Source: a virus (lineage: Duplodnaviria; Caudoviricetes). From it: DNA of 63,187 nucleotides. A program made the position numbers and the translations under genes. Below, piece by piece: positions 1,641 to 63,187 of the stretch; within the stretch, counting starts at the first letter, position 1, and the number at the start of each line of letters is the position of its first letter. Under the pieces are notes generated by a model. The model saw only the letters and a program-made list of their open reading frames with translations. It searched no databases and was not told the DNA's origin. Where the stretch lies: positions 1 through 63,187 of the IMG/VR virus record IMGVR_UViG_3300011339_000451, one strand, 5' to 3'.

Positions 1641-2354
1641 TTAGCCTTTCATTTCTTCTTTACGGTTTTTGAATTCCAGCATGAGTGCTGTGTAGCTTGC
1701 TTCGTCTTCGGCTTTTAACTTCTCGAACACGATGCGGTTGTTGGTGAACAGCTTCATAATGTCGCCTTCTGATGCTGTCTCGGCCAACCCTATCTTAGTG
1801 ATGTCAGTGACCAGTGCCGCCCATGATGCAACGTCTGTTCCGGGATCAGCCGTTACCTTCAGGTGCCAGCTCTTCTCGTCCTTACCCTCCACCACTTCTG
1901 GCGGCTTACCCGTTGGCTTGGGTGCAGGCTTAGGCTCAACCTTTGGTTCAGCTTTTACAACTGGCTTAGGTGCTGGCTCGGCGGCAGGAGCAGAGTCGAT
2001 GATGTCATGTTCCACGATCTCCATGGCTGTCATCCAAAGGTAACGGCGTTGATAGGATTCAACCGCGCCTAGGTTCTGTATGGGGTGAGCACCCTTCAGG
2101 TTAGCCTCGGCCATTGGGCTAGTGATAACAACCACTGTGCCGTCATCTACGTCTGTGATGCACAGGGTTGCGTACTCGCTATTGAATGACACCACGCCGC
2201 ACAGTCCAATCTCGTTAAAGATTGTTTGGATGTGAGGGATGAAGTCACCCAACTCAAAGTATGAGTAGCCTGCAAACTTATTCAGGCCAGACTTCTTCAT
2301 CTCTGTGGATTGAAGCTTGACCCTCGCTTGCATTAACTTTTTATGGACTGACAT
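1641..2354 (-). CDS. ERF-family ssDNA-annealing protein
   Basis: KKSGLNKFAGYSYFEL and QNLGAVESYQRRY motifs; Pro/Lys-rich linker. Confidence 0.85.
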   Translation of the reverse strand: MSVHKKLMQARVKLQSTEMKKSGLNKFAGYSYFELGDFIPHIQTIFNEIGLCGVVSFNSEYATLCITDVDDGTVVVITSPMAEANLKGAHPIQNLGAVESYQRRYLWMTAMEIVEHDIIDSAPAAEPAPKPVVKAEPKVEPKPAPKPTGKPPEVVEGKDEKSWHLKVTADPGTDVASWAALVTDITKIGLAETASEGDIMKLFTNNRIVFEKLKAEDEASYTALMLEFKNRKEEMKG

Positions 2355-2607: not shown

Positions 2608-3501
2608 TTACTCCATCGTTAAGTAGGTTTGGTATTGCTTGCAGAACTGGGACACTTGGCAGTAACTCTTGCACCGTGTCCTCTCCCCTTGTCTGACTTC
2701 CACTGAGAACTTCTCGCTCTTCTTGGCTGATGCCTGAGCCGCTTCCATCGCGGCAGTGGCTTCCTCGAATGTCTCGTGAACACTCTTGGCTCTGACGTTG
2801 CCGTCCTTCTTCACGGCGTAGCTGGTCTTCTTCTCCCACATTTCTTCTGATGTGCATTCAGGCATCTCGCCGTCAGTCTCCATCTCAAAGAGTGCTGTGC
2901 CGTGTTCGTAGATACGCTTGGTAATGAATGCCTCACGCTCCTCAAACGTCCACAGTGGGATGTCGATAGTGGCCACTGGCGACTGGGGATAGTTCTCCTT
3001 CGTAGCGGCATCGCGGGCAGACCAGTCGCGAATGATGGCAATGATCTGAAGCTTACCAACTGGCACCTTCTTGACCTTCTCCACCATCCACGCATAGATG
3101 TTGAGCTGACGATGCCAGTCGTCCTTCTCATTCATCACTGCCCATGCACCAGTAACTTTGTAGTCACTGATTGTGATCGTGCCGTTGGGTTCTACTTCTT
3201 GTAGATCAATAGCACCAGAGATATGCCAGCCTTCAAACTCAAGGTGGATGCGCTCTTCAACAATGTGGTGCTCGTCCTTGCCGTGCTCAAGAATGTTGTG
3301 CACAGCAGATCCGAACAGTGACCACACCATCTCGCTTGCGTCCTGCTCAATCTCGTCCCAGTACTTCTTCTTCAACTGCACGATGCGGGGTGAGTTGATG
3401 ATCTCTGTTGCTGAGATGTGCGCCTTACCTTTGGAATAGGTCGGCCTATGTATCACATTGAGGAAGGTCTGGGGTAAGTTGAACTTGTTGGTGAACTTCA
3501 T
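2608..3501 (-). CDS. PD-(D/E)XK (RecB/Cas4-like) exonuclease
   Basis: ISGAID...ISDYK...QLNIY motifs; C-terminal Cys cluster C...RCKSYCQVSQFC. Confidence 0.85.
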   Translation of the reverse strand: MKFTNKFNLPQTFLNVIHRPTYSKGKAHISATEIINSPRIVQLKKKYWDEIEQDASEMVWSLFGSAVHNILEHGKDEHHIVEERIHLEFEGWHISGAIDLQEVEPNGTITISDYKVTGAWAVMNEKDDWHRQLNIYAWMVEKVKKVPVGKLQIIAIIRDWSARDAATKENYPQSPVATIDIPLWTFEEREAFITKRIYEHGTALFEMETDGEMPECTSEEMWEKKTSYAVKKDGNVRAKSVHETFEEATAAMEAAQASAKKSEKFSVEVRQGERTRCKSYCQVSQFCKQYQTYLTME

Positions 3502-3977
3502 GGCTGATCCCTGTCTGCAATACGCTGAAGCTCACGCTTCTCAATGCTTAACATTCCTGCTAGCTTTGAGATCTTTGCTTGCGCGTCTGCGTTCTTCTTG
3601 CGACCTTCGTCAGTAAGTAGCTCAGTCTTGGTAAAGCTGACGCCCATGGCCATGCGCTTCATCTCGCGGCCAATAGCCTTGACACCAATGTCAACTGCAT
3701 GTTGTGTCTGAGACTCAGGTTCAATGATGACGTAGTTACCTGCGTGATCGCTGACCATTAACATACAGTGGGCCGTCAGTAGGATGTCTTTAATCTCTGT
3801 GATGCAACGCAGAACTTCAAGGTCGTAGCGGCGAACATCGCTGATGTCCACTGGCTTGGGTACTTCGCATAGGTCTGCCAAGTACGTGCGCTTTAGTACG
3901 CTACCGTACGTTAAGCCGTTGTCGAGCAAAGTCTTAACGGCTTGCTTCCAAGCAGGAAAGAGTTTGGGATCGCTCAT
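3498..3977 (-). CDS. Unknown 159-aa protein coupled to the RAMP-like gene
   Basis: 4-nt ATGA overlaps with both neighbours; no family recognised. Confidence 0.75.
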   Translation of the reverse strand: MSDPKLFPAWKQAVKTLLDNGLTYGSVLKRTYLADLCEVPKPVDISDVRRYDLEVLRCITEIKDILLTAHCMLMVSDHAGNYVIIEPESQTQHAVDIGVKAIGREMKRMAMGVSFTKTELLTDEGRKKNADAQAKISKLAGMLSIEKRELQRIADRDQP

Positions 3978-4543
3978 ACAAACTCCACGCTGAAACGACC
4001 GAAGCGGGGACGGTAGTCACCCAGACCAATCAATGCACCTGCATCGACCAGAGCCTTCTTTACTTCGTTCACGTTAACAACGTCTTCGTTCACAACAACT
4101 GTTGCTGATAGTGTCCAGTTACGGAAGATGGGACGATAGCGAATGATCTTGGCCATGCCGACCTTCACGCCACGTGCGTCAATGGCCTTTGGGTTTTCCC
4201 ACAACTTCTCTGGAGTCATGTTCTTGAAGCCGTCAATGGGTAGCTCGTCTTCCAATACCTGCACGCCCTGCTTGAACTTAACGCCAAGCTTCTGAAGCTT
4301 TGCCGCCGCGATCAGGCATGAGTCAAGGTTCTGCGCTGGAATAAAGAAACCCTTGTCTTCGTTCCAGTAGCAACCACCGATGAACTCGCTTCGTGCAATC
4401 GCAACGTGGTCGTCATCTGTCTTCTTGCGCTTGCTGGTCAGCTCTTTGTGAGCCTTGGCCAGAGGGTCTAACGGGTTTGCAAACCTGTCAGAGTGCATGA
4501 GTAAGGACGATGTGCCTGTAATTTTCACTGGGATAGTTTTCAT
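3974..4543 (-). CDS. RAMP/Cas7-like RNA-binding protein (candidate effector of the adjacent array)
   Basis: N-terminal strand VKITGTSSLLMH, FFIPAQNLDSCL helix, YRPIF..W, C-terminal Gly-rich loop GALIGLGDYRPRFGRF; AAGGAA RBS. Confidence 0.75.
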   Translation of the reverse strand: MKTIPVKITGTSSLLMHSDRFANPLDPLAKAHKELTSKRKKTDDDHVAIARSEFIGGCYWNEDKGFFIPAQNLDSCLIAAAKLQKLGVKFKQGVQVLEDELPIDGFKNMTPEKLWENPKAIDARGVKVGMAKIIRYRPIFRNWTLSATVVVNEDVVNVNEVKKALVDAGALIGLGDYRPRFGRFSVEFV

Positions 4544-4574
4544 TTTGTTTCCTTTAAGTTGTTTGATGCACTGT

Positions 4575-5145
4575 TTGCATCGGACATAAGACTGTTACCA
4601 ATCCTATGGCCGCTACATTAGCCCTAGCCGTGCCGCGTCATGCCATGCCGAGCCAAGCCCAGCCTAACCTCAGCAAGCGTTGCCACTAACACTCGAAGGA
4701 GCACTCATTGAATGCTCTATCGACTGTTGTCAGTCCATGCCAAGCCTCGCCTAGCCTCGCCTCAGCGCTCCATTCCAAACCCCAACTCGCCGCAACACTC
4801 GAAGGAACACTCGTAAGAATGTTCTATCGGCTGTTGCCAGCTCCATGCCCGTCCTCACCAGTCCCCGCCTCGCCTCGCCGTTCCGAGGCTTGCCGATACT
4901 CGAAGGAGAACTATTGCTAATTCCCTATCGGCTATCGCTAGCTCCATGCCCAACCCGACCTTGCCCAGCCTCCCATGCCCGTGCCCGCCCCACCGCACCG
5001 TGCCAGACCAGACCTAGCCTCACTAACACTCGAAGGATGACTGTTGCCAATCACCTATCGACTATTTCTAGTTCCCTGCCCGACCACACCCGACCGAGTC
5101 GCGCCGTACCTCGCCGTGCCTTGCCGATCCGTATCCAGCCATGCC
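4575..5145 (-). ncRNA. Array of five candidate guide RNAs, each a GGY-NN pentamer tract plus a 3' hairpin
   Basis: Tracts at 5071-5145, 4941-5019, 4840-4894, 4732-4791, 4620-4684; ACTCGAAGGA (+ strand) recurs at 4691, 4797, 4898, 5028; hairpins show compensatory changes. Confidence 0.85.
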
Positions 5146-5173
5146 GGTAAGTAAACCAGTTAGGTTGGTGTCG

Positions 5174-5202
5174 ATTGTACCTGCTATATTGTATGAATGC
5201 AA
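5174..5202 (-). promoter_or_regulatory. Sigma70-like promoter for the array and RAMP operon
   Basis: TTGCAT-N17-TACAAT on the minus strand, ~30 nt upstream of the first tract. Confidence 0.6.
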
Positions 5203-5240
5203 TATGTCTGATAAAATAAATGCAATATGTAGGGAAATCC

Positions 5241-5528
5241 ATGAGATACGCAAACCGCATTGACGCCAATCAAAACAAAATAGTTGAAGCTTTACGCAAG
5301 GCTGGCGCTTACGTCCGTATCATTTCTCAGGGTGACGGAATACCGGATTTGCTGGTGGCGTACAAGGGATACACGATACTGATGGAAGTTAAGGATGGCG
5401 ATAAGCCGCCGTCTGCCCGTAAGCTGACTGAGGCGGAGCAGAAGTTCTTTGACGAATGGACGGGTGGAATGTTGGTTGTTGTGAATTCTGTTGAGGAAAG
5501 TGTTGCAACGTTGCAGAAGTGCGATTAA
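5241..5528 (+). CDS. VRR-NUC / resolvase-like endonuclease
   Basis: RIDANQ...GIPDLLV...MEVKD...KLTEAEQKF. Confidence 0.8.
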   Translation: MRYANRIDANQNKIVEALRKAGAYVRIISQGDGIPDLLVAYKGYTILMEVKDGDKPPSARKLTEAEQKFFDEWTGGMLVVVNSVEESVATLQKCD

Positions 5529-62947: not shown

Positions 62948-63187
62948 GCTTGTCCCCTTGCTCGGATGGCGTAGGCGCAGTCAATCGGAGTTGGCCATTT
63001 ACAGCATTCCACGCCTTCGGCTTTTTCTTCCATGTCATCACACAACTTTGCACACGCAGAACGCTCGGCAGAAGCGACAAGGGCGGCAAAGCGTTCAAGG
63101 TCTTCATCTATACCTGTTATCCGCAACAAATATCCTTTCTCAACATTGAACCCCGCCTCTCGTGCCATGCGAATAATGTCTTCTCTG
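62944..63187 (-). CDS. Small phage protein; its start lies in the left repeat copy
   Basis: IIRMAREAG...ERSACAK...AIRARGQA. Confidence 0.7.
   Translation of the reverse strand, partial: REDIIRMAREAGFNVEKGYLLRITGIDEDLERFAALVASAERSACAKLCDDMEEKAEGVECCKWPTPIDCAYAIRARGQA
63028..63187 (+). repeat. Terminal direct repeat, right copy
   Basis: 155/160 identical to 1-160. Confidence 0.95.

Follow-up and report, generated by a model that had tools for sequence, protein, structure and literature searches.

What kind of system is formed where a row of guanine-rich pentamer tracts leads directly into a gene for a Cas7-like protein in a phage genome, and at what would such a system be aimed? The question is raised by IMG/VR virus record IMGVR_UViG_3300011339_000451 (Duplodnaviria; Caudoviricetes), whose 63,187 nucleotides were analysed as one stretch, called the window below. 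Its minus strand carries five pentamer tracts, each followed by a structured tail, and after them the gene for a 189-residue protein (vipr) and an accessory gene for a 159-residue protein (vap). We conclude that the feature is real, and that it is a new example of VIPR (Viral Interference Programmable Repeat), the RNA-guided DNA silencing of viruses, a kind of system already published in 2026 (bioRxiv 10.64898/2026.04.26.720920, 10.64898/2026.04.26.720927, 10.64898/2026.10.15.759431). Judged from its sequence, the locus is very probably a complete type II-like VIPR that a freshwater phage carries in its early leftward operon; the system is probably active, its expression, the formation of a ribonucleoprotein (RNP) and the binding of a target being putative.

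According to the preprints, one Vipr protomer is bound per GGY-NN unit, and the NN dinucleotide is displayed for gapped pairing (bioRxiv 10.64898/2026.04.26.720920, 10.64898/2026.04.26.720927). The target is double-stranded DNA, with one skipped base per unit. The preprints also describe RNP formation, the 1-nt skip rule, silencing of GFP and of phage, and enhancement by vap1, and they give the authors' set as 664 loci. An earlier note on this DNA, made from the letters alone, had likened the locus to recently reported phage VIPR-type systems and had proposed that each protomer grips one GGY and displays the NN. Such systems are in print, in the two 2026 preprints just cited, and the mechanism it proposed is the same as theirs; the double-stranded DNA target with its skipped bases was no part of the note.

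The pentamer tracts

The array is read on the minus strand between 5145 and 4565 as five units, each made up of a tract of GG(C/T/A)-NN pentamers and a structured tail; the unit boundaries are taken from the sequence and not from mapped RNA ends. The units are called vrRNA1 to vrRNA5 here. The first (5020-5145) consists of 14 GGH-NN pentamers (5145-5076), a junction pentamer and a tail. vrRNA2 (4895-5019) has nine pentamers (5019-4975), a 4-nt unit (4974-4971), five further pentamers (4970-4946) and a tail. vrRNA3 (4792-4894; ten pentamers, 4894-4845) and vrRNA4 (4685-4791; 11 pentamers, 4791-4737) likewise end in a tail, and vrRNA5 (4565-4684), which is nearest to vipr, joins 12 pentamers (4684-4625) to a distinct tail of three hairpins. 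Tract lengths are 10-15 units.

The five-nucleotide period stands far above shuffled levels. Runs of at least five units with GG at period 5 occur seven times in the whole 63-kb genome, in every case within 4643-5130 of the minus strand, against a mean of 0.145 and a maximum of 2 in 200 shuffles of the window. For runs of at least four units the counts are 2 on the plus strand and 8 on the minus strand, with a shuffle mean of 1.7 (200 shuffles). The five units of tract and hairpin that the earlier note had read on this strand are thus borne out.

Among the 61 pentamers of the five tracts, 52 begin with GG and 46 read GGY. At the third position C occurs 37 times, T 17 times, A 7 times and G never, while every base is found at positions 4 and 5, and 14 of the 16 possible NN dinucleotides are represented. 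The GGY code that had been proposed describes most of the pentamers, but A is also tolerated at position 3.

Comparison of guides between phages bears on which letters carry information. The vrRNA2 guide has all of its overlapping NN units (8/8) in common with related locus L017. The guide of vrRNA3 belongs to a family common to at least eight related loci, with 8 of its 10 units shared with L005 and six or seven with the guides of seven further loci. These guide families persist across phages whose neighbouring genes are 58-88% identical. In one family of homologous guides, compared over nine units and nine loci, the counts of minority letters at pentamer positions 1 to 5 are 0, 6, 25, 3 and 2 of 73, respectively. 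A pattern in which NN is held and position 3 drifts among C, T and A is what is expected if NN carries information, and on this sequence comparison we take the NN to be selected information and the third scaffold base not to be.

The structured tails

The four internal tails share a core, ...CGATAG...CCTTCGAGT, which is found at 5036, 4906, 4805 and 4699; the fifth tail is of a different type that is also conserved. For the internal type, 26 tails were aligned (4 from the window and 22 from nine related loci), and 23 columns of the alignment are invariant. Two hairpins read by eye have 95.6% of their cells paired across the 26 tails, with 35 cells changed on both sides. None of 500 shuffles gave so high a value, and slid registers pair only 28-64%. 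RNAalifold independently gave three helices: P1, of 4 bp with a GNRA-like tetraloop; P2, of 7 bp and often with a GCAA loop, in which pair 38-43 is G-C in 9 sequences, A-U in 9 and C-G in 2; and P3, a short invariant helix (CGA with UCG) that closes the junction. By tail covariation, these helices fall in vrRNA1 at 5072-5061 (P1), 5054-5037 (P2) and 5060-5058 with 5033-5031 (P3), on the minus strand. Read from the aligned sequences, the internal tail folds into three helices with GNRA-type loops. Inspection by eye also raised a pseudoknot between the P2 loop and the 3′ GTGTT, which was discarded as incompatible with the covarying P2 pairs.

The tail type of vrRNA5 is kept in 15 loci. RNAalifold with these 15 sequences places its three hairpins at 4622-4612 (P1), 4606-4587 (P2) and 4581-4565 (P3) of the minus strand, and pair 57-67 in P3 is G-C in 11 of the sequences and A-U in 4. 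A scan of 4400-5400 with Rfam gave only two sub-threshold chance matches and no family for the tails; neither that scan nor a reading of the array by eye revealed ribozymes or staggered units in it.

The Vipr protein

The vipr gene (3974-4543, minus strand) encodes a Cas7-like RAMP of 189 amino acids that ends in GLGDYRPRFGRF. Its ATG lies about 21 nt beyond the last hairpin, which ends at 4565. The earlier note was correct in placing an open reading frame (ORF) of 189 codons after the array, but had put the gap at about 30 nt. Residues 1-188 align to residues 1-189 of PDB 36pp_D, 'SUSP1 Vipr protein', with an expectation value (E) of 1.8e-46, and the protein matches phrog_4652 at E 8.8e-69; Pfam and NCBIfam have no match for either vipr or vap.

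A structural model built on 33 homologous sequences has a pLDDT (predicted local distance difference test) score of 92.7. With this model, Foldseek gives 80 matches at E <= 0.001, and those listed are all Cas7/Csm-type chains of effector complexes of CRISPR (clustered regularly interspaced short palindromic repeats) systems. The best match is the type VII Cas7 8yhe_B (E 4.2e-6; template modelling score, TM, 0.55), and type III Csm3 chains are also among the leading ones. A RAMP/Cas7 fold had been suspected from the sequence, with structure searches named as the check; it is upheld by these matches and by the full-length alignment to SUSP1 Vipr.

The contact residues point in the same direction. 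The preprint on the SUSP1 structure assigns contacts with two guanines or the target backbone to H17, K33, R138, D177, W178 and R179. The window protein keeps H17, K33, R137, D176 and R178, and has Y177 in place of SUSP1 W178; H17, R137 and R178 are invariant in the 33 homologues. At the pocket for pentamer position 3, the SUSP1 residues E71, M72, C173 and that at position 175 are replaced by Q71, N72, I172 and L174 in the window. Medea1 and LESphi2, where A at position 3 is scarce, have Q71 and N72 as well.

The Vap protein and the lack of a CRISPR apparatus

The vap gene (3498-3977, minus strand) encodes an accessory protein of 159 amino acids, and its start overlaps the vipr stop in the sequence ATGA. 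Vap matches phrog_5926 at E 3.4e-15. BLASTP shows that the genes found after vipr in LESphi2 (E 3.6e-23), Medea1 (E 2.7e-12) and the SUSP1-like Felixounavirus VpaE1 (E 4.2e-6) are homologues of it, and by tblastn 60 of 127 loci have a Vap match immediately downstream of vipr. The coupled accessory ORF that had been read at this place is therefore a recurrent partner of vipr.

In a model of Vap (pLDDT 89.2), helices and a beta hairpin come first, and a long helical hairpin comes after them. Foldseek with this model gave nothing at E <= 0.001, the weak rows being mostly winged-helix proteins, and a sequence search of solved structures with Vap gave no match. A wide VIA fold search was taken up by matches to the helical hairpin at the C-terminus (Z up to 9.4, which is uninformative for helical models) and left the N-terminal part uninformed. 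Type II vap proteins are predicted DNA binders according to the VIPR preprint, and Vap is a candidate DNA-binding protein.

No CRISPR apparatus accompanies these genes. In Pfam, PHROG and NCBIfam scans of 66 ORFs of the window, no cas1, cas2, cas5, cas6, cas8 or cas10 family scored above threshold, and Cas3 and a large subunit were likewise absent among the results; Tandem Repeats Finder detected no CRISPR-like array in the window. The same absences had been noted from the letters, and the scans agree. Of the array, adaptation genes and multi-subunit effector that define class 1 CRISPR-Cas, none was found, and the Cas7-like fold alone is held in common.

Related loci

A tblastn search with Vipr found 130 phage records, mainly Felixounaviruses, at 41-42% identity, and megablast of 3300-5500 against phage records gave no match. 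In a pattern scan of IMG/VR, the best 80 of 263 relatives were kept, representing 79 distinct loci, and a scan of one genome per prokaryote species gave 45 relatives. Tracts were called as at least six units with at least 75% GG, in 82 loci comprising 3 phage records and the 79 from IMG/VR, the prokaryote-genome loci L083-L127 being left out. Same-strand pentamer tracts adjoin vipr in 82 of these 82 loci. Whether such arrays flank homologues had been named beforehand both as a check on the RNA-guided interpretation and as a way to refute it, and the interpretation stands.

The position of the tracts divides the loci. In the close clade, where Vipr is 71-97% identical, they lie upstream of vipr in all 28 loci, like those of the window, and in the more distant, Pseudomonas-like loci they lie mostly downstream of vap. 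The clades also differ in the scaffold: in the close clade 20.5% of 779 GG units have A at position 3, compared with 2.2% of the 778 units of the distant clade and 1.8% of the 55 of VpaE1 (L004-L031 being compared with L032-L082 and L002).

In relatives with exonuclease and ERF proteins, encoded farther along the same strand, that are only 51-88% identical, the identity is 89-97% for Vipr and about 91-95% for Vap. As a separate observation, loci L007-L012 have a Vipr 89-90% and a Vap about 91% identical to those of the window, in comparison with 59-60% for the exonuclease and 52-56% for ERF; the explanation is either stronger constraint on the module or its transfer between these phages. In another locus, L022, four further tracts (12-21 units) make up a second array, which runs on the opposite strand some 1.3-1.6 kb upstream of vipr, and this array includes a copy of the guide family of the window vrRNA3.

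Comparison with known systems

With the type II VIPR of Escherichia phage SUSP1 (PDB 36pp), the window shares a Vipr of the same length that aligns from end to end and is about 42% identical to the SUSP1-like VpaE1 protein. The GG-contact residues, the presence of vap after vipr, carriage by a phage and the lack of cas genes are also alike, as are vrRNAs of 10-16 pentamers with a structured tail. The arrangement is different, in that SUSP1 has one vrRNA upstream and three downstream, as its preprint describes, whereas all five of the window are upstream of vipr. VpaE1 has tracts on both sides of vipr, and conserved spacer hairpins where the window units abut directly. Host and habitat differ as well, the window coming from freshwater.

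The nearest named relatives are loci of Pseudomonas prophages and phages (P. fulva clade; Medea1, LESphi2, L032-L082 and L086-L100), the Vipr of the window being 60.6% identical to that of Medea1 and 47% to that of LESphi2. These loci have a homologous vap and a GC-rich GGC/GGT scaffold. They differ in the downstream position of most arrays, in the rarity of A at position 3 and in having other tails. In addition, several of their guides match phage tail genes or other vipr genes, whereas no such match was found for the window guides. It is on the basis of these nearest relatives, SUSP1-like and Pseudomonas, and of the homology of vap that we describe the locus as type II-like.

A more distant likeness is to Cas7 of class 1 CRISPR systems (type VII Cas7 and type III Csm3), which has the same RRM-based RAMP fold with a glycine-rich loop and also places one protomer per fixed RNA period. 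That period is 6, however, whereas in the window it is 5 with a 3+2 code, and identity to the window Vipr is 10-16%.

The locus leaves the picture from the 2026 preprints unchanged. Its value lies in adding a naturally occurring, well-resolved case of VIPR in uncultured freshwater phages, one with at least 28 close loci; the tolerance of A at position 3 and the different tail are relevant to the latitude that the scaffold allows in VIPR engineering.

A possible mechanism

If the locus functions like its published relatives, a transcript would begin near 5174-5202 and continue through the five vrRNA units into vipr, vap and the recombination genes; a single transcript is suggested because a site scan found no terminator-like site between the array and the genes. 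The units would then be separated into RNAs of about 100-125 nt. Vipr protomers would polymerise on each tract, one per pentamer, holding the GG(C/T/A) and displaying the NN, a step suggested by the 42% identity to SUSP1-like Vipr and by the conserved contact residues. The resulting filament would bind double-stranded DNA that matches NN-x-NN-x..., with one base skipped per unit, and would thereby block transcription. The structured tail would cap the 3′ end, and Vap, as a putative DNA binder, may strengthen the effect. By analogy, the most likely role of the five guides is to silence genes that belong to a rival mobile element sharing the host.

Targets and alternative explanations

The gapped code can be recognised in related loci. 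When 120 guides were compared with 3.3 million positions, matches of at least 85% numbered 17 with a 1-nt skip, 2 with a skip of 0 and none with a skip of 2; the 244 matches with a 3-nt skip are the arrays themselves. Guides of L054 and L039 match the gene for tail-assembly protein L of Medea1 at 22 of 24 and 20 of 22 positions (L001:945-979 and 1215-1246). A guide of L060 matches the vipr of five loci at 21 of 24 (L047/L049/L050/L056/L082:3085-3119), and L060 is itself matched at one site (5166-5218) by guides of L082, L080 and L046, at 25 of 28, 21 of 24 and 16 of 18. These 1-nt skip matches of other loci's guides indicate that the search method works. Against their own phage genome, the guides of the window reach 14-19 matches at best, which is not above shuffled guides; this agrees with the preprint, which reports no self-targeting for its own VIPR loci. 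Conversely, 153 guides of relatives match the window at 15 of 18 at best, which is chance level.

Several observations speak against an intact VIPR with a rival element as its target. Nine of the 61 pentamers lack GG, and A is at position 3 in 6 of the 52 GG pentamers, although the preprint describes the SUSP1 pocket for this base as closed to purines. The 4-nt unit of vrRNA2 (4971-4974, minus strand) breaks the 5-nt register between the first nine and the last five units; relatives of vrRNA2 have a full pentamer at this place, and contigs from an independent run span the site without an indel. The SUSP1 tail is a pseudoknot, whereas that of the window is a three-helix fold in which a pseudoknot was not found, although without a rigorous test. 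Vap is just 18-28% identical to its counterparts. The TTGCAT-N17-TACAAT promoter of the earlier note is present as a motif at 5202-5174 of the minus strand, but it is a weak match to the sigma-70 consensus (8 of 12 positions) and was not called by a promoter scan. Finally, the window guides found no target above the shuffled level in 0.51 Mb of VIPR loci, in 0.79 Mb around the helicase genes of relatives or in 1.70 Mb around their portal and virion-protein genes. The lone match of at least 80% in the 0.51 Mb, by the half-guide U2a (15 of 18), equals the maximum for shuffled guides, and the 10-position U2b is uninformative. Together, the target searches covered the phage itself and about 3 Mb of relatives' sequence, which is very little, and since no target was found there, the proposal of a rival element rests on analogy.

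One alternative is that the same machinery is present and that its guides are aimed at the host chromosome, serving host takeover in place of competition with rival phages or satellites. Such a role would suit a locus that heads an early operon and whose guides have no match in the roughly 3 Mb of the phage's relatives, and the persistence of two guide families across phages with diverged neighbouring genes would fit a conserved target such as a host gene. A conserved gene of a satellite or prophage would explain the common guides equally well, however, and the natural targets reported by the preprints are all mobile elements or decoy sites. We consider targeting of the host chromosome distinctly unlikely. 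The same failure to find a target, in the phage's own genome or in the 3 Mb, could instead be a sign of a decaying or idle VIPR, in which vipr is intact, the guides are left over without a living target and vrRNA2 is damaged; the 4-nt unit and the pentamers without GG would then be marks of decay. Internal degeneracy is frequent in vrRNAs, though, according to the VIPR preprint, and the target searches spanned very little sequence. Moreover, NN is held in the common guides, and Vipr and Vap are far better conserved than the exonuclease and ERF in the relatives compared above. Decay thus appears very improbable to us.

It could also be supposed that the tracts are a by-product, either of a Pro/Ala-rich coding repeat on the plus strand, where ORFs of 101 and 70 amino acids can be read through the array, or of G-rich structural DNA. 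Neither ORF matches a Pfam family, substitutions follow the pentamer and not the codon, the tails covary as RNA helices, and the tracts accompany vipr on its own strand in each of the 82 loci; the likelihood of a by-product is close to negligible. An active VIPR directed at a rival element is the explanation that we prefer. As a tentative extension, which we think rather unlikely, the freshwater clade could be a distinct VIPR subtype, defined by a relaxed GG plus C/T/A scaffold and a three-helix tail that is not a pseudoknot, with two guide families aimed outside its own lineage at a host gene or a widespread freshwater satellite. If true, a distinct subtype with such a target would add a previously undescribed use to those of VIPR.

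Genome and operon setting

The window is the whole of a 63,187-base assembly. Bases 1-160 recur at 63028-63187 with 155 of 160 identical, a direct repeat of the two ends that marks the phage genome as complete or nearly so. The repeat may be terminal, or may be a circular-assembly overlap with population variants. In the large terminase, identity to Phage DSL-LC04, phage 023Pt_psg01 and Pelagibacter phage HTVC027P is about 56%. A PHROG scan of 66 ORFs identified a helicase, a primase, a ParB-like protein, head and tail genes and an endolysin, and an integrase was not among the matches. Near-identical DNA is present in river, lake and freshwater metagenome runs from several studies. Candidate hosts from metagenome-assembled genomes (Cyanobium, Rhodoferax and Pseudomonadota, loci L083, L084 and L085, with Vipr 71-80% identical) were rejected; the contigs are short and perhaps mis-binned phage, and for that reason no host is claimed.

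The VIPR locus heads an early leftward operon. In order along the minus strand are the promoter-like motif, the five units, a ribosome-binding site, vipr, vap, an exonuclease gene and ERF. The exonuclease (2608-3501, minus strand) is of the PD-(D/E)XK type (phrog_2139, E 2.5e-49), and its start overlaps the vap stop. It has a sub-threshold likeness to Cas4 (TIGR00372, 22.5 bits with a cut-off of 65; phrog_1706). The gene for the ERF annealing protein (1641-2354, minus strand) lies downstream of it. In 20 of 127 loci, each belonging to the close clade or near it, this exonuclease comes after vap, and the association therefore looks like synteny of the phage backbone, with the exonuclease part of a recombination module and not a component of VIPR.

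The promoter region

The promoter-like motif (5174-5202, minus strand) is located upstream of the array and is a possible promoter. Contigs from RNA library X15 cover 4505-5299 and not 3670-4483; they were discounted as a sign of expression, as their depth is low, they may reflect DNA carry-over and they extend upstream of the putative promoter. A 15-nt direct repeat is present in the divergent intergenic region at 5193-5207 and 5216-5230, with 14 of 15 positions identical and the copies 23 nt apart. It overlaps both the promoter-like site and the start of an endonuclease-like gene on the plus strand, and it may be an operator.

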